Below, one piece after another: positions 25,481 to 31,834 of a stretch of 64,000 bases of DNA; position 1 is the stretch's first letter; every line of letters starts with the position of its first letter. Source of the DNA: Patescibacteria group bacterium. GTDB taxonomy: Bacteria; Patescibacteriota; Doudnabacteria; UBA920. The stretch is taken from the NCBI GenBank assembly GCA_036726225.1, contig DAIMCS010000003.1, positions 73,769-137,768 on the forward strand, written 5' to 3'. Position numbers and translations under genes: made by a program. Below the pieces are notes generated by a model. It saw only the letters and a list, made by a program, of their open reading frames with translations, had not been told where the DNA came from and ran no database searches.

Positions 25481-25524
25481 AGTCTGTTAATAATTTAGAC
25501 GGCCGTCTAAATTATTAACAGACT
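25481..25524. promoter_or_regulatory. perfect 44-bp palindrome (22+22) sharing its core with the upstream site
   Basis: agtctgttaataatttagacgg/ccgtctaaattattaacagact. Confidence 0.6.
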
Positions 25525-25526
25525 GA

Positions 25527-26570
25527 TTATTGAATTGTTTTCAAAAATTTGTTTACTATATTTTCAACTTCTCCCACACCGATTGTTGTCATTAATTCAG
25601 CTCGTAATTCAGAAGCTCCGTCAAACCCGTTTGCGTAAGCTTTAAAATGCTTGCGTATTATTGCGAAAGATTTTTTCCCTTCAAATTCCTGTGTATACAA
25701 TCGCGCGTGTTCCAGCATAACAGACAGGCGTTCTTTTATAGTGGGCTCAAAATTATCTTTCCGAAAAAACCATGGGCTACCAAAAGCTCCCCTACCAACC
25801 ATAATTCCGTCACAGCCTGTTTCTTTAACTCTACTTAACCCTTCCTCGCGCGATTTGATATCACCGTTGCCGATGATCAGAGTCCTGCCATTGCGAGCCG
25901 AAGGCGAAGCAATCTTTTCCTTGTTTGAGATTGCTTCGTCGCTTACGCTTCTCGCAATGACATTTGATTGAATTTGGTTGCGAATTTTGACCGCCTGCGC
26001 AATTGCACCCCAATGAGCCGGAACTTTACTTTTTTCTTGCTTGGTTCTGGCGTGCAGAGCAATAGCTGCGGGCTCGGCCAATAACAGATGCCTAAGCCAG
26101 GCATTCATTTCCTCAATTTTGCTGTAGCCTAATCTTGTTTTGACCGAAACAGGCAAGCCGCCTGCGCCTTTTTTTGTTGCGGCTATAATTTCTTTTGCCC
26201 GCTCCGGTTCTAAAATTAAAGCCGCGCAGGTTTTTTGGCCAATCTCTTTGTCCTGCGGGCAGCCGAAATTAATGTCCACCCCGTCAAACCCGAGTTTCGC
26301 AATTATCTTAGCAGCATCGTGGAATTTTTGCGGCTCCCTGCCCCAGAGTTGCGCCACAATTGGCCGTTGAATTTCTGTAAATTTTAAATCTTGCGATAAC
26401 CTTTTGTAGCCCTCGGGATGAGTTAAGCCGTCAACATTTACAAATTCAGTATAAAAAACGTCCGGTTTACCGTACTTAGCAAACATTTCCCGAAACGCCA
26501 CGTCCGTAACATCCACCATAGGCGCAAGGCAAAAAATGGGCTTATTTAATTGTGTCCAAAAATTTGGCAT
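25527..26570 (-). CDS. dus: tRNA-dihydrouridine synthase
   Basis: CLAPMVDVTDVAFREM and FMN-binding TIM-barrel pattern. Confidence 0.85.
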   Translation of the reverse strand: MPNFWTQLNKPIFCLAPMVDVTDVAFREMFAKYGKPDVFYTEFVNVDGLTHPEGYKRLSQDLKFTEIQRPIVAQLWGREPQKFHDAAKIIAKLGFDGVDINFGCPQDKEIGQKTCAALILEPERAKEIIAATKKGAGGLPVSVKTRLGYSKIEEMNAWLRHLLLAEPAAIALHARTKQEKSKVPAHWGAIAQAVKIRNQIQSNVIARSVSDEAISNKEKIASPSARNGRTLIIGNGDIKSREEGLSRVKETGCDGIMVGRGAFGSPWFFRKDNFEPTIKERLSVMLEHARLYTQEFEGKKSFAIIRKHFKAYANGFDGASELRAELMTTIGVGEVENIVNKFLKTIQ

Positions 26571-26674: not shown

Positions 26675-27079
26675 TTATTTCAAAGTCACTTTAGCGCCGG
26701 CTTCTTCCATTTTCTTCTTTAAGGCTTCGGCATCGGCTTTAGCAACGTTTTCTTTAACGGTCTTAGGAGCTGCGTCTACAATGTCCTTGGCTTCTTTAAG
26801 TCCAAGGCCGGTAACTTCGCGCACAACTTTAATTACGTTAATTTTGTTCGGTCCGGCTTCGGTTAATTCAACCGTAAATTCGGTTTTTTCCTCGGCGGCA
26901 GGAGCTCCAGCACCGGCTCCGCCAGCGGCCATCATCATGGGAGCAGCGGCGCTTACACCAAACTTCTCTTCTAAAATTTTTACAAGTTCAGACAACTCAA
27001 TGGCTGTTAACTTTTCTACGTGGTCCACAACAGTTTTAAACTTTGCGGGGACTTCAACATTCTTTACTTCATCTGACAT
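26675..27079 (-). CDS. rplL: 50S ribosomal protein L7/L12
   Basis: Ala/Gly-rich hinge and conserved C-terminal domain ([36 protein letters not shown]). Confidence 0.9.
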
Positions 27080-27167
27080 ATTGTATGGGTTAGTTCTGTT
27101 ACGGGTTACGCGTTACGGGTTTAGAAACTCGCAACTCGCCAACTCGCAACTAATTAATTTATAAATA

Positions 27168-27695
27168 TTAGGCTGCAACCACAGCTGCTTCTACAGCAGG
27201 AGCCGGTTCTTCCATTTTCTTTGCGCGGGCGTTTAGCACGCGGGCAAAAGCGGAAATGGGGCCGTTAAGTACTGACATAAACTGCGCTCGCAACTGGTCT
27301 TTGGTCGGCAAATCTGCCAAAGCTAAAACCATTTGCTTGTCTACGAGCTTGCCGTCTAAAAGACCTTCCAAAATTACCAAAGTTTTTATCTCTTTAGAAA
27401 GACTTTTTATAATCCTTGCAGCAGATGTTTCGTCTTCTGTCGCAGTAGAAAGGATTACCGGAGTTTTGTAGTCTATTTGCTCGGAAGGGATGCCGGCGGC
27501 TGCCAAAGCTTTCTTTATCAAAGTTATTTTATAGACTTTGGAAACCACACCTTCTTTTTTTAGCTCCCTGCGGAATTTGTCTAAGTCTTTTACTGTAGTA
27601 CCTCTGTATTCTGTTAAGACAGCCGATTTAGCGGACTTAATTCTGTCCGTTAATTCGGTTAAATCTTTTTCTTTTTGACTTTTTAATTTAGCCAT
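27168..27695 (-). CDS. rplJ: 50S ribosomal protein L10
   Basis: MAKLKSQKEKD...; L10 family, immediately upstream of rplL. The track ORF extends to 27737. Confidence 0.9.
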   Translation of the reverse strand: MAKLKSQKEKDLTELTDRIKSAKSAVLTEYRGTTVKDLDKFRRELKKEGVVSKVYKITLIKKALAAAGIPSEQIDYKTPVILSTATEDETSAARIIKSLSKEIKTLVILEGLLDGKLVDKQMVLALADLPTKDQLRAQFMSVLNGPISAFARVLNARAKKMEEPAPAVEAAVVAA

Positions 27696-27830
27696 AATTG
27701 ATTTAAGTACCAATTCACAAGTACCAAACAAGCACAAATATTTAATATTTAAATATTGAAATTTGTTTGGTTCTTAGCTTTTGGATCTTGATTCTTACTA
27801 CTTTCGACCTTTACTGTTAAATATCCTTTT

Positions 27831-27861
27831 AAAAAAACAAAAACTCGGCTTTTAACCGAGT
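27831..27861 (-). terminator. rho-independent terminator upstream of the rplJ leader
   Basis: On the minus strand: ACTCGGttaaaagCCGAGTttttgttttttt. Confidence 0.6.
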
Positions 27862-28031
27862 ACAAAATTAAATCAGCAGTCTGATTTTCATTTCCTCGGT
27901 GGGCTTATGATGTCATCCTCGCGAAGGCGGGAATCTTTCATAATTTACGATCTTTCGATCACCAACTGTCTTTGGATATTTAATTGTCAATAGTGTACCA
28001 AAATCACTTTAATTCGTCAAGTACGAAGAGT

Positions 28032-28068
28032 AAAAAATTAAACGGCTTCTGCAGGAAAGTCAGAAGCC
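28032..28068. terminator. rho-independent terminator (stem CGGCTTCTG/CAGAAGCCG + T8)
   Basis: aaacggcttctgcaggaaagtcagaagccgtttttttt. Confidence 0.7.
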
Positions 28069-28096
28069 GTTTTTTTTGGAATTTTGGAGCTGATGT

Positions 28097-28321
28097 TCAT
28101 CGGCGCAAGAACAACCTGCCCACCCATTGGACGCAACCTGATACAACAAATGCCGGTATCATACGCCAATCAGCGTGGTCATGATTCATAATTGCCCAGG
28201 CAATTTTCTCGCAGAATTTGTGTAGTTTATCGTCCTGAAATGAACATTGGCCTTCCATACAGCGTCGTATGTGGTCATGGATTTCCTCATTCAGAGAAGA
28301 GAATCCCGAATTAGATTGCAT
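28097..28321 (-). CDS. 74-aa Cys/His-rich small protein in a GC-rich islet
   Basis: Start preceded on the minus strand by A8G7 then CTT-ATG; about 50% GC. Confidence 0.35.
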   Translation of the reverse strand: MQSNSGFSSLNEEIHDHIRRCMEGQCSFQDDKLHKFCEKIAWAIMNHDHADWRMIPAFVVSGCVQWVGRLFLRR

Positions 28322-28370
28322 AAGCCCCCCCTTTTTTTTAGGTACAGTGCGTGTTCAAAATGTGAAAAAA

Positions 28371-28408
28371 GGCAAGCGGCGTCTTGGCAGACGCCGCTTG
28401 CCAGGTGC
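28371..28408 (-). terminator. rho-independent terminator of the 141-aa islet gene
   Basis: GGCAAGCGGCGTC-tgccaa-GACGCCGCTTGCC followed by TTTTTT on the minus strand. Confidence 0.7.
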
Positions 28409-28412
28409 AAAT

Positions 28413-28838
28413 CTACACAAATTCCGCCAGTCTAGCGGTTGCGATCAATTGCTCCGCTCTTATTCGCACTAAAGCCGGCAGGCCCACTTTAACCAAGGCG
28501 AGAAAGTTTTCCGCGACACGCTCCGGAGCGATTCTGCCGATTTCAAAATCAGAGAGCTTGTACTCATTTTCCGGCTCAGGAATGCACATGGTCTCTTGAC
28601 CGAAAGCGGTGAAAATCATGGAGATTTCCAGGTAAGTTGGGTCATACGATCCGGCCGGGTCGTTCAGCTTTGTTGCGCGAATCTTCAGCACCTGCGCGTG
28701 TTTGCTCAGCTCGCCCAGCCCTTCTTGTATGGCTGTGTAAACCTGTAATACAAAGGTCCTTTCCTCGGAAGTAACAAGCCTCCTAGGCCCGACACCGTGT
28801 CCGCGGAAGTGTATTTCGTTGTCAAAAGTAAACTTCAT
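28413..28838 (-). CDS. hypothetical protein in a GC-rich islet (141 aa from MKFTFDNE)
   Basis: AGGAGG SD 5 nt upstream of ATG at 28838; about 55% GC; no family recognised. Confidence 0.5.
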   Translation of the reverse strand: MKFTFDNEIHFRGHGVGPRRLVTSEERTFVLQVYTAIQEGLGELSKHAQVLKIRATKLNDPAGSYDPTYLEISMIFTAFGQETMCIPEPENEYKLSDFEIGRIAPERVAENFLALVKVGLPALVRIRAEQLIATARLAEFV

Positions 28839-28927
28839 TTTTCCTCCTATGGGCCTCAGGCCCATTTCATTTACGAGTTACAAACTCGCAGGAGAAAGTA
28901 TAGGATAAAAATAGTTTTGTGTAAAGA

Positions 28928-29692
28928 CTAGGTTAAAACTCTTCCCCCATTTTTTCCAACTGTTACCGTGTGTTCAAAATGTGAAGAAAGCCCGCCGTCG
29001 GCCGTCCTAATTGTCCAGCCGTCAGCATCTACATTTACAAAATATTCGTGCTCGCAAACCATAGGCTCAATGGCTAAAACCATACCTTCTTTTAAAACCA
29101 ACCCGGTGCCTTTTTTACCGTAGCAGGGAACAGCCGGGTCCTCGTGGACTTCGTAGCCCACCCCGTGCCCGACTAAGTCGCGCACCACGGAAAAACCGGC
29201 CGCTTTAGCAGTTGATTCAATAGCAAAACTTATATCACCAATCCTGTTTCCGGCTTTTGCCTGGGCAATCGCCGCGTCCAGGCATTTTTTTGCGGTTTGG
29301 ATGAGTTTTAAACCTACATCTGACACCCGTCCCACAGCCACTGTAAGCGCGTGGTCAGTATACAGGCCTTTGTATTCCATTCCAATGTCTAGCCCTAAAA
29401 TGTCTCCGGATTTTAAAATAGCCGTTTGCGAAGGAATACCATGCACCACAACATCGTTCAGCGAAGTGCATAAACCTGCGGGAAAAGGATTTTTTTTGTC
29501 TCCGTACCCGTTAAAGCTTGGCCTGCCGCCTGAAGAAACAATTTCTTTTTCCGCAAAAGCATTTAACTCAAAGGTAGAAACGCCGGGTTTTACAAGCCCG
29601 GCAGTCTTTTGCAAAATATCGTGAAGAATTTTCCCTCCCTCGGCAATTATTTCAATTTCTTCTTGAGTTTTAATTAACCCTTTTTTGCTCAT
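28928..29692 (-). CDS. map: methionine aminopeptidase type I
   Basis: Metal-ligand pattern: D..D (DILGLDIG), HGVGYEVHEDP, E..E, C-terminal HFEHTV. Confidence 0.9.
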   Translation of the reverse strand: MSKKGLIKTQEEIEIIAEGGKILHDILQKTAGLVKPGVSTFELNAFAEKEIVSSGGRPSFNGYGDKKNPFPAGLCTSLNDVVVHGIPSQTAILKSGDILGLDIGMEYKGLYTDHALTVAVGRVSDVGLKLIQTAKKCLDAAIAQAKAGNRIGDISFAIESTAKAAGFSVVRDLVGHGVGYEVHEDPAVPCYGKKGTGLVLKEGMVLAIEPMVCEHEYFVNVDADGWTIRTADGGLSSHFEHTVTVGKNGGRVLT

Positions 29693-30287
29693 ATTTAGTT
29701 ATCGAAGCTAAAAGTCTTTTTTTGGCGCCGGGAATTGTGCCTGAAGTAGAAATTTTAACAAACGGATAAAGTTTTTTAAAATAAGAAACAACCTGCTTTA
29801 TATTTTTTTGGTAATAGGCTACTCTGTTTTTTAAAGCGTTGTTGTTGTCGTCCGGGCGTTTGGAAAACTTTCCGCGAAAATAAGTTTTGCGGCTGGTCAT
29901 TCTACGCATTGTTTCTTTTAACGGAATTGTTAAATAAACAAAAAGCACCTGTTGGCGCTTTTCCTGGCGGAGCCATTTTACAACCAGCTTGGCCTCTCCG
30001 AGCATTTTGGGACTACCGTTAAAAAGTATGCCCTGCTTTTTGGGTGTGGAGTGTATTTTGTAGCGCAAGATTTTTCTTACCAGTTCAGTGGGTGTAAGCT
30101 TGCCGCGGTCAAGGGTTTGGTCCAATTTATACTTTGCCCTAAGTTTTTGGTTACCCTCCAGGGCCCTTAGTTCTTTGCCCATATCCAAATTGTACAAATG
30201 GTACTTAGACGCTAAAAACCTCCCGTGAGTGGCTTTCCCGGCAGCAGGGTCGCCTAAAAGTATTATGTTAAAAGGTTGGCCTTTCAT
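29670..30287 (-). CDS. divergent adenylate-kinase-like NMP kinase (tandem paralog of adk)
   Basis: P-loop LLGDPAAGKAT; NMP-binding and LID-less layout colinear with the adjacent adk. Confidence 0.55.
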   Translation of the reverse strand: MKGQPFNIILLGDPAAGKATHGRFLASKYHLYNLDMGKELRALEGNQKLRAKYKLDQTLDRGKLTPTELVRKILRYKIHSTPKKQGILFNGSPKMLGEAKLVVKWLRQEKRQQVLFVYLTIPLKETMRRMTSRKTYFRGKFSKRPDDNNNALKNRVAYYQKNIKQVVSYFKKLYPFVKISTSGTIPGAKKRLLASITKYEQKRVN

Positions 30288-30289
30288 AA

Positions 30290-30892
30290 TTAAAGTTTTT
30301 TGATGAGAGGCGATGACTGGTCAACCCCGAGTGTTTGTTCAATTTTTTTTGTAACCTCATGGATTTGCGGGGAGCCGTCTATTTCAAAAAATTGCGTGTG
30401 CTGTTTTAAAAAATCCAGCACAGGCAGGGTTTCTTCTTCGTATTGCTGCAAACGAAATTCAATTTTTTCCAAAGTGTCGTCGGCCCGCTTTTCCAGCTGT
30501 CCCCTTTTAAGCAAGCGCTGGACAGATTCAGCTTTAGGCAAGCTAATGTACAGGGTTGTAAAATTTTCCCGTCCCTGTTCCTTTAAAAAGTTGAGCAAAG
30601 CTTCGGCCTGGCCAATTCTTCTGGGAATGCCGTCAAAAATTACGCCCTGGGTCTTTGAAATTTCGCCCAGTCTCATTTTTACCACCTGATATAAGTCTTC
30701 ATCCTGCAAAAGCACCCCTGAATCTATTAAATTCTTTATTCGAATGCCCAAAATTGAATCCCCCGCCGCAACTTCTCGTAAAATCCCGCCCATTTCCCAA
30801 TAAAAAAAGTCCAGCTTTTTTGCTAAAAGCTTAGCCTGGGTCCCCTTGCCGCTTCCTTGGGGGCCAATAAAAAAAATGACGTTCAATTGCAT
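30290..30892 (-). CDS. adk: adenylate kinase
   Basis: GPQGSGKGTQA P-loop; short-LID form. Confidence 0.9.
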   Translation of the reverse strand: MQLNVIFFIGPQGSGKGTQAKLLAKKLDFFYWEMGGILREVAAGDSILGIRIKNLIDSGVLLQDEDLYQVVKMRLGEISKTQGVIFDGIPRRIGQAEALLNFLKEQGRENFTTLYISLPKAESVQRLLKRGQLEKRADDTLEKIEFRLQQYEEETLPVLDFLKQHTQFFEIDGSPQIHEVTKKIEQTLGVDQSSPLIKKL

Positions 30893-31032
30893 TGTTTAGA
30901 TTTTACCCTGAGGCGCAGAAGTTTCTTTGAGCCAAAGGATATAGTTTAATAAAATTATGTTTTTATTTTACAATATTTCTGGCAAAAAGGAAAGCGGCCG
31001 GAAAACTTGCCGGTCGCTATATCCGCAAACAA

Positions 31033-31197
31033 CTACTGTGAGCGGGATCTTTTTTTATGTTTTTTGAGAACGCGTATGAGCTCCTTCTTTTGGCCCGCAG
31101 GTGAACCGGACATACTTCCGGCAACTCTACCCCAACCACGCAGGAGTGCATCTCTCACTTTGTCTGTCATTTCGGGCTGTTTTAAGGACTTTTTCAT
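31033..31197 (-). CDS. 54-aa basic small protein (MKKSLKQPEMTDKVRDALLRGWGRV...)
   Basis: Hand-translated; AAGGAGG SD 7 nt upstream; terminator-like hairpin 31233-31270 upstream of it; GC-rich islet. Confidence 0.3.
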   Translation of the reverse strand: MKKSLKQPEMTDKVRDALLRGWGRVAGSMSGSPAGQKKELIRVLKKHKKRSRSQ

Positions 31198-31355
31198 ATC
31201 ATCCTCCTTAATAAAATTGTAGCAACTGCTCCAAAAAAGGGAAGGCCGCGGCGATGTGTTACGCCGCGGCCATCAAGCTCACGCTTTAGTTTCCGGCTGA
31301 TCGTAAAGCATTCCGGCGATGCCATATAAAGCGCAAAGCTGGCGATCCATGCGCC

Positions 31356-31478
31356 TCAGTTCTTCGAGTGTGACCAGTGTGGTGTGTGATCAAGGGATTG
31401 CTTAAGCAACACCAGTCGCTCTTGAAGCGGTAATGAGGCGTAATCTATAGGCAAGTCACGCGGTTGTTTTTCTTTCAT
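31356..31478 (-). CDS. 40-aa small ORF (MKEKQPRDLPIDYASLPLQERLV...)
   Basis: Hand-translated; AAGGAGG SD; in-frame read-through into the next ORF is possible. Confidence 0.2.
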   Translation of the reverse strand: MKEKQPRDLPIDYASLPLQERLVLLKQSLDHTPHWSHSKN

Positions 31479-31570
31479 TTAAGGGATCCTCCTTATAAAA
31501 AGCATAGCATTTTAGAACAAAAAGAAAAGGCCGTGACGTTCGTCACGGCCGACTCAATTAATTTGGGTGC

Positions 31571-31729
31571 TCAATCGTTGACCCCACCGACTTCCTCTTT
31601 GGGAGGGTTGTTATCATCGGGTAAGTGGTAAAAGGTATAAAGGCCATCGTTGACCTTAAGCCCAGTGCCAAAGGCGTCATGTACCACTTCCACTTTGTCT
31701 ATGGGGATCTCAAGTCTGGTTTTTTCCAT
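31571..31729 (-). CDS. 52-aa small acidic protein (MEKTRLEIPIDKVEVVHDAFGTG...)
   Basis: Hand-translated; GGAGGAG SD; followed by terminator hairpin GGCCGTGACG-ttc-GTCACGGCC + T-run at 31529-31551. Confidence 0.3.
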   Translation of the reverse strand: MEKTRLEIPIDKVEVVHDAFGTGLKVNDGLYTFYHLPDDNNPPKEEVGGVND

Positions 31730-31834
31730 CTTGCTCCTCCTTCTGTGAAAGATTGTAGCACTTAAATAAATTTAATGCTATAATAAATAAAATTTTTAAA
31801 CCTACGGAAACTAAAATAAAACCCTGGGAGGTTT

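Follow-up and report, generated by a model that had tools for sequence, protein, structure and literature searches.

A repeat of the map 3' coding end upstream of the L10 operon in a Doudnabacteria genome, probably left by a rearrangement

In the 64-kb stretch of DNA analysed here (the window), a 21-nt piece of the 3' coding end of map is present a second time on the far side of the neighbouring gene orf141, and this repeat is a non-random duplication derived from this lineage's own map. The repeat is, with moderate confidence, best explained as the scar of a species-specific rearrangement of two native blocks, with a copy of the map end lying at the junction. The original prediction had read the same geometry as an integration with a duplicated attachment core; the repeat is not, however, an att site where a mobile element integrated. 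The features of the locus are collected in Table 1.

Table 1. Features of the map-orf141-rplJ locus, with positions in the window
Feature	Position	Strand	Evidence or remark
map, complete type I methionyl aminopeptidase	28928-29692	minus	PF00557 and TIGR00500 over full length
Proximal 21-nt repeat copy, CTTTCTTCACATTTTGAACAC	28970-28990	minus	map codons L-S-S-H-F-E-H
Synteny breakpoint J1, 2 nt between map stop and orf141 promoter -35	28926-28927		
orf141 promoter, TTTACA-17-TATACT	28897-28925	minus	10/12 versus consensus; same hexamers and spacing in nzgw383
orf141 5'UTR, UUCUCCU pairing with SD AGGAGGA; inner AUGGGC/GCCCAU hairpin	28839-28896	minus	RNAalifold
orf141, 141 aa, first gene of block B, function unassigned	28413-28838	minus	ORF call and homology
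orf141 intrinsic terminator, 14-bp stem, 10 GC	28371-28402	minus	arms CAAGCGGCG/CGCCGCTTG, identical in nzgw383
Distal 21-nt repeat copy, CTTTTTTCACATTTTGAACAC	28351-28371	minus	possible decayed extension to ~28323
Segment S, ~340 bp: map fragment, A8G7 tract, orf74, terminator	28030-28370	minus	not in nzgw383 at this place
orf74, 74-aa Cys/His-rich ORFan, GC 0.453	28097-28321	minus	only this species
Terminator-like hairpin after orf74, then T-run	28035-28077	minus	inverted repeat in sequence
L10 operon promoter, TTGACG-17-TACACT	27992-28020	minus	homolog in other Doudnabacteria: TTGACGAATTT...GGTATAAT
Ribosomal protein L10 leader RNA	27829-27993	minus	RF00557, 45.0 bits versus gathering score 44
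rplJ and rplL	26675-27737	minus	Pfam; 72% and 95% identical to nzgw383

The repeat of the map 3' coding end

The map protein matched TIGR00500 with 273.7 bits (cutoff 171.35) over residues 7-254. Its C-terminus carries the HFEH metal-site motif, and its tail aligns with those of 47 relatives and fits their profile well. The nearest map proteins belong to Candidatus Doudnabacteria (Patescibacteria/CPR), with 80% identity in nzgw384 and 75% in nzgw383.

The two copies of the repeat are identical at 20 of 21 positions, have the same orientation and lie 619 bp apart from start to start. Their consensus is CTTT[C/T]TTCACATTTTGAACAC on the minus strand and GTGTTCAAAATGTGAA[A/G]AAAG on the plus strand. 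Only these two copies were found in the 64-kb window when up to 3 mismatches were allowed; in dinucleotide-preserving shuffles 0.08 copies were expected with up to 2 mismatches and 0.02 with up to 3, and no shuffle contained two. Ungapped comparison of the 356-nt segment 28020-28375 with both strands of the whole window gave a score of 18 for the repeat and of 14 for the top background match. Gapped local alignment of the repeat reached about 49 columns, up to the A-run/G-run, with a score of 42, against a mean of 15.8 and a maximum of 28 in 2000 shuffles; the 21-nt core alone scored 37, so that the extension adds 5 points.

With decayed flanks, the repeat may measure about 45 nt. The divergence between the copies is uneven, at 20/21 identity (95%) in the core and about 75% with two indels in the putative extension. 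Had a longer duplicate simply decayed neutrally, such a pattern would not be expected. Either the core alone (about 21 nt) was duplicated, or it was kept by gene conversion or by selection, its first 7 nt being, in the distal copy, the T-tract of the orf141 terminator.

Translated in the frame of map, the distal copy reads FSHFEHALYLKKRGG. In an nhmmer search with a map-tail profile, for which the final 120 nt of 47 relatives' map genes were used and the window sequence left out, positions 28374-28334 were the second-best match in the window (E=0.025, the next being E=4), and since this profile held relatives only, the distal copy is map-like in general, beyond its likeness to the map of this genome. 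The residue before HFEH is Ser (TCA) in the map of the window, while the aligned relatives have nearly all Ala, two Cys and none Ser. The TCA codon is common to the distal and the proximal copy, indicating that the distal copy arose within this lineage. The claims that the map end is duplicated about 620 bp away, and that the distal copy still spells a map-like C-terminus in frame, were thereby borne out by the spacing, the shuffles and the profile of the relatives.

The copies bracket 598 bp of DNA, made up of the last 13 map codons and orf141, and the distal copy supplies, with its first 7 nt, the T-tract of the orf141 terminator. The original prediction had placed between the copies a 141-aa ORF with an AGGAGG SD and a strong terminator, and all of these were confirmed, the terminator having a 14-bp stem.

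Synteny of the locus and the genes between map and rplJ

Two collinear stretches meet directly after map. Window positions 35139-28928 (cysS, Na+/H+ exchanger, adkA, adkB and map) are collinear with contig L012 of the sister genome nzgw383, and positions 28865-23537 (orf141, rplJ, rplL, dus and a 675-aa protein) are collinear with its contig L103. The gene map is the last of synteny block A (cysS-NhaP-adkA-adkB-map). Homology to L103 begins at CTTTACA, 2 nt past the map stop, and is absent before it, where 8 of 33 positions are identical.

The tandem cluster adkA-adkB-map is kept in about 50 Doudnabacteria loci, where variable small ORFs and a convergent thrS follow, and in none of these loci was infA, rpmJ or rplJ/rplL found downstream of map. 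The comparison proposed in the original prediction therefore showed the region downstream of map to be lineage-specific here, but the supposed displacement of infA/rpmJ falls away, as neither gene follows map in any of these relatives. In nzgw383, map lies on L012, apart from the rplJ contig, and is followed by an unrelated 141-aa ORF, a 123-aa ORF and thrS. In the closest relatives (L011, L025 and L026), map is immediately followed by small Cys-rich ORFs of the same orientation.

At four outgroup rplJ loci (L107-L110), the order is DUF218, 390-560 bp without an ORF, L10 promoter and leader, rplJ, rplL and dus. The L10 leader lies directly upstream of rplJ and is conserved in L103 and in L107-L115. 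Given the approximately 50 relatives and the four outgroup loci, the ancestral orders are map followed by the thrS side and DUF218 followed by rplJ, and the order of map followed by orf141 in the window is derived. Both ancestral arrangements are kept in nzgw383, with orf139 in addition upstream of rplJ.

The map-orf141-S junctions are spanned by at least 18 contigs from the ENA, JGI and Logan assemblies, all at least 99.87% identical and with the same gene order. Since these are independent assemblies, the arrangement is not an assembly artefact. No structural variants were recovered among the 18+ same-species contigs, and no empty site with a single core was found in these contigs or in 80 map loci. 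A literature search on Doudnabacteria gave nothing relevant to the map-orf141-rplJ locus.

For orf141 and orf74, no significant match was obtained in Pfam, NCBIfam, PHROGs, PADLOC or PDB sequences, and in a word-indexed search of 5.8e9 proteins each matched only itself. An exhaustive HMMER search of 1.8 billion representatives gave one homolog of orf141, the 139-aa protein P0003 (E=7e-9), which is 29-30% identical over the full length (pairwise BLASTP E 8e-20). A profile of orf141 and P0003 found no third member of the family, proteins at least 90% identical from another species were absent from the collection (90% clusters), and no orf141 relatives were found in IMG/VR viral contigs, GenBank phages or PLSDB plasmids. 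The proposed homology search thus yielded one homolog for the 141-aa protein, encoded upstream of rplJ in nzgw383, and none for the 74-aa protein.

The gene for P0003 (orf139) is located in Doudnabacteria nzgw383 (GCA_023245895.1, contig JAHFJJ010000006, locus L103), in the order tRNA-Gln, DUF218 gene, orf139, L10 leader, rplJ, rplL and, further on, dus. The orf141 and orf139 units have in common the promoter, the SD-pairing 5'UTR, the inner hairpin, the SD region GCCCATAGGAGGAA and the terminator arms. Since its only homolog lies directly upstream of L10 leader-rplJ-rplL-dus and shares these regulatory features, orf141 belongs to the rplJ block. RNAalifold on the 5'UTR, run on two sequences only (the window and L103), showed no double compensatory changes. 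In L103 the L10 promoter adjoins the orf139 terminator so closely that the TTGAC of the promoter shares bases with the 3' arm of the stem. It was also observed that the regulatory frame of the orf141 unit (promoter, SD-sequestering leader and terminator arms) is conserved while the coding region is diverging very fast.

The GC content of orf141 is 50.6% with a GC3 of 0.58, the highest among the 56 long ORFs of the window, whose mean GC is 0.418 (sd 0.036), the window as a whole having a GC of 41.6% and a mean GC3 of 0.427. The predicted value of about 55% was too high, but the elevated composition itself was found. In nzgw383 the homolog orf139 has a GC of 0.505 and a GC3 of 0.571 in a genome of 44.6% GC, and since it is equally GC-rich, the GC excess of orf141 is more likely a property of the family than the trace of a recent import. 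The composition of orf74 (GC 45.3%) is unremarkable, and the description of this ORF as the continuation of a GC-rich islet does not hold.

The structure of orf141 was modelled by AlphaFold with a pLDDT of 38.6 from the single sequence and, from two sequences, with a pLDDT of 60 and a pTM of 0.57, the latter model having a predicted α-β-β-β-α core. The top Foldseek matches of this pLDDT-60 model in the PDB were pY and YfiA, and they were weak (E 0.046-1, TM 0.27-0.50). An assignment of orf141 as a YfiA/HPF/pY ribosome hibernation factor was not supported, as no Ribosomal_S30AE Pfam match was present and the hhalign probability was 0.7%. A YfiA-like fold would be compatible with the position beside the L10 operon and is offered as a lead only.

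Segment S, which separates the orf141 terminator from the L10 promoter, is extra DNA relative to nzgw383. When it was compared with about 120 loci of relatives, neither its DNA nor its translation resembled any of them. Segment S as a patchwork of nearby fragments was also considered and rejected, with only the 21-mer rising above background; a 13-mer matching map and a 12-mer matching the end of orf141 were at chance level. The stretch preceding orf74 reads GCACTGTACC. In one sample, the contigs break at exactly 28373 (...CGCCGCTTG) and 27985 (...AATTAAATATCC).

Downstream of segment S, the L10 leader-regulated rplJ-rplL operon (RF00557) is like that of other Doudnabacteria in its leader, promoter and operon. 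It differs from them in what lies upstream, which is map-orf141-S here and DUF218 in the relatives, and rplK-rplA is not adjacent here.

At the orf139 unit of nzgw383, neither a flanking repeat nor a map-like fragment was found, and no map-like fragment follows the homologous terminator in nzgw383 or is present at the other rplJ loci. After the homologous terminator nzgw383 carries TTTTTTGAAAAGG. When the post-terminator sequence was compared with the L10 promoter of nzgw383, 13 of 18 positions matched after a 6-nt gap, while MAFFT gives a different register.

Origin of the repeat

Under the rearrangement of native blocks, the window would interleave two ancestral loci in the order A1 - B1 - A2/S - B2. 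In this scheme, A1 would be the end of block A (...cysS-NhaP-adkA-adkB-map), B1 the orf141 unit from promoter to terminator, A2/S the map 3' fragment with orf74 and its terminator, and B2 the L10 promoter and leader with rplJ, rplL and dus. B1 and B2 were already adjacent in the common ancestor with nzgw383, while the adjacency of map to orf141 and segment S are new, and the map-derived copy lies at the boundary of B1 and S.

The mechanism may have been illegitimate recombination independent of a recombinase, or template switching, possibly where T-rich microhomology (CTTTYTT / TTTTGAA) is present and in or close to the terminator hairpins. Two versions can be envisaged. In the first, the map tail would have been carried along with DNA formerly downstream of map (orf74) and interleaved upstream of rplJ; in the second, a short stretch of map would have been copied as filler DNA when segment S was inserted. 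Compatible with such a mechanism, the junctions abut strong hairpins, namely the orf141 and orf74 terminators. The T-rich microhomology (CTTTYTT; TTTTTTGAAAAGG in nzgw383) may pre-date the copy, the alignment being ambiguous at this place.

Illegitimate or microhomology-mediated junctions can hold short templated filler insertions, as in template switching of the MMBIR/FoSTeS type, events that are documented mainly in other organisms. The locus resembles such junctions in that two loci are interleaved, a copy from about 600 bp away lies at the junction, and hairpins and T-rich microhomology adjoin it. It differs in that the mechanism is here inferred only, with no intermediate or polymorphic allele recovered.

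Three points speak against the rearrangement of native blocks. The order and number of events in it are conjectural, since a single sister genome has an orf141 homolog and this is only 29% identical. The uneven divergence of core and putative extension does not suit the neutral decay of a longer duplicate. Finally, the insertion of a unit extending from promoter to terminator would leave the same exactly bracketing repeat.

The last point leads to the main rival, in which the native orf141 unit moved within the genome into the boundary between map and orf74 and duplicated the map end, after the lineage had gained the order map-orf74-L10 leader-rplJ. A circle that entered by a Campbell-type single crossover, or else template switching, could have produced the move, which would account for the geometry, in which the repeats directly flank the map tail and the orf141 unit. 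The small Cys-rich ORFs that follow map in L011, L025 and L026 would also fit orf74 as a former neighbour of map. However, orf141 would have to leave rplJ and later return to a place no more than 340 bp from the L10 promoter, an unlikely coincidence, and the adjacency of map and orf74 occurs in no known genome. This intragenomic move is consequently rated lower than the rearrangement scar and considered unlikely.

A foreign or mobile orf141 cassette, integrated site-specifically at the map 3' end with the 21-mer as att core, is very unlikely. Genomic islands, ICEs and prophages integrate at the 3' ends of tRNA, tmRNA or protein genes, rebuild these ends and leave att-core repeats; in the present case, the element would have replaced the tail of map by one of its own, leaving the former tail to decay. 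The locus shares with such elements a repeat of the gene end that brackets the downstream DNA, an intact gene and a degenerate far tail. The direct repeats bracket one gene unit including the last 13 codons of map, orf141 has the highest GC3 of the window and is almost an ORFan, and the sequence beyond the distal core has only the loose likeness to map that is expected of a displaced tail.

Against this integration, Pfam families of integrases, transposases and recombinases are absent among the genes called within ±10 kb, and nzgw383 carries the homolog upstream of rplJ, far from map and without a flanking repeat. The GC excess is common to this homolog (GC3 of 0.58 in orf141 against the window mean of 0.427, and 0.571 in orf139), so that the composition profile confirms orf141 as deviating without marking it as imported. 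In addition, viral contigs, phages and plasmids contained no relatives, the present map tail matches the profile of the relatives well, and rplJ is not among the downstream neighbours of map in the relatives. Unlike elements that integrate at 3' ends, the locus has no recombinase called nearby, no known empty site and no mobile relatives; the bracketed DNA measures only 598 bp, is itself native and a neighbour of rplJ conserved in position, and deviates in GC just as the orthologous copy does. Of the predicted integration at the map 3' end, the duplication, the lineage-specific region and the ORFan genes stand, but orf141 is not the inserted unit, being native and linked to rplJ. Nor was an att core supported: no recombinase was called within ±10 kb, and neither an empty site nor relatives in mobile elements were found.

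Other types of mobile DNA were also rejected. For a transposon, IS or MITE, no terminal inverted repeats are present at the ends of the bracketed unit, and the unit is single-copy. A reading of the repeat as a TSD was set aside, as a TSD is usually shorter than 21 nt and the repeat includes coding sequence. For an integron cassette, no integrase was called within ±10 kb, and the sole hairpin after the ORF is a terminator with a perfect 14-bp GC stem and a T-tract.

Less likely still, the 21-mer would be a cis-acting element preserved by selection, for instance as a binding site for a protein or an sRNA or as an element distal to a terminator. The 95% identity of the core beside far more diverged flanks, together with the overlap of the distal copy with a working part of the terminator, would suit such an element. 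On the other side, only two copies exist in 64 kb even with 3 mismatches, no equivalent follows the homologous nzgw383 terminator or occurs at other rplJ loci, and the conserved HFEH coding sequence accounts for most of the map copy.

A chance resemblance between the T-tract with adjoining AT-rich sequence and the HFEH-coding sequence, for which the TTTTTTGAAAAGG after the homologous nzgw383 terminator and a TTTTGAA microhomology to CATTTTGAACA that may pre-date the copy could be cited, is the least probable of all, as 0.02-0.08 copies were expected and 0 shuffles held two, the ungapped match of 18 exceeds the background maximum of 14, and the copies, with the same orientation and a spacing of only 619 bp, have the lineage-specific Ser codon in common.

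Significance for gene order in Doudnabacteria

The rearrangement favoured here is an event of a fairly ordinary kind in a poorly sampled lineage. A further-reaching speculation, in which the orf141 family would be a promoter-to-terminator gene unit shuffled in CPR genomes without a recombinase, by short-homology or template-switch events in which the 3' end of the recipient gene is copied, with segment S perhaps still polymorphic in view of the contig breaks in one sample, is decidedly doubtful. If the repeat were an att site, map would be a new integration target in CPR bacteria, which the evidence does not support. The locus instead serves as a caution, since a repeat of a gene end around a GC-rich ORFan mimics integration, while the synteny of a sister genome shows a rearrangement junction.

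The analysis also flags a small-protein family of two members, fast-evolving and with a conserved leader, located beside the L10 operon. With a short, presumably templated copy at one of its junctions, the locus provides a small and well-bounded case of gene-order change in reduced CPR genomes, the junctions lying beside terminator hairpins.

Adenylate-kinase genes and spacer upstream of map

Two adenylate-kinase paralogs, ~25-30% identical to each other, stand in tandem before map. The tandem pair was kept in ~50 Doudnabacteria (L011-L061), and the adenylate kinase-map cluster lies apart from both secY and the spc operon of ribosomal genes. The 940-bp spacer from adkA, one of the pair, to the divergent Na+/H+ exchanger gene reaches a GC of 0.50 and carries only ORFs of 40-54 aa, with no long ORF; its equivalent in the sister genome nzgw383 is ~380 bp, and an Rfam search of the spacer returned nothing at the gathering threshold.

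Coordinates of the features described (window unless L103, the rplJ contig of nzgw383, is named)
Feature	Position	Strand	Remark
dus indel region	~26300-26570		1-nt indel
Inverted repeat, arm inside orf74	28208-28228
Inverted repeat, arm at orf141 stop-codon region	28410-28430
orf141	28413-28838	-
orf141 5'UTR	28839-28896	-	foldable; orf139 counterpart L103 7943-8000
Adenylate-kinase pair	29670-30892	-
adkA-exchanger spacer	30893-31834
orf139 terminator and L10 operon promoter	L103 8440-8495

Strain variation and contig ends

In a second strain (samples ERZ27267734 and SRR6448454; contigs L006, L140 and L141), dus, the gene beyond rplL, is split by the indel into ORFs of 78 and 258 aa. Position 25495 is a shared end of three Logan contigs. 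In the single sample SRR6448454, contigs L009 (30450→28373) and L141 (27985→25495) break off precisely at either edge of a stretch made up of the species-specific segment S and the L10 promoter, and in a different sample L096 ends at 28924, 4 nt past the map stop. All three positions (28373, 27985 and 28924) are bridged by contigs of other samples, and such contig ends could reflect either an indel polymorphism, seen as a graph bubble, or merely low coverage.

The orf141 product and its non-coding frame

The 21-nt inverted repeat joining orf74 and orf141 is 86% complementary, with an exact core of just 12 nt, a length at chance level for the window. The AlphaFold model of the orf141 product, of moderate confidence, weakly matched pY and YfiA best, which are ribosome hibernation factors; this modelled likeness is suggestive given the place of orf141 beside the L10 operon, and sequence profiles gave no support for a pY/YfiA-like protein.

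In the predicted fold of the 5'UTR of orf141 and of its nzgw383 homolog orf139, UUCUCCU at the 5' end and the AGGAGGA of the SD form a stem around an inner AUGGGC/GCCCAU hairpin, and this SD-pairing fold was kept in both species. The -35 TTGAC of the nzgw383 L10 operon promoter (TTGACT-17-TATAAT) comes from the 3' terminator arm of orf139 (…CGCCGCTTGAC), therefore terminator and promoter overlap in nzgw383, unlike in the window and outgroups, where a separate -35 (TTGACGAATT…) is present. Between orf141 and orf139, the coding region is less conserved than its non-coding frame: identity is 29% for the proteins and 57% for promoter plus UTR, and the terminator arms do not differ.
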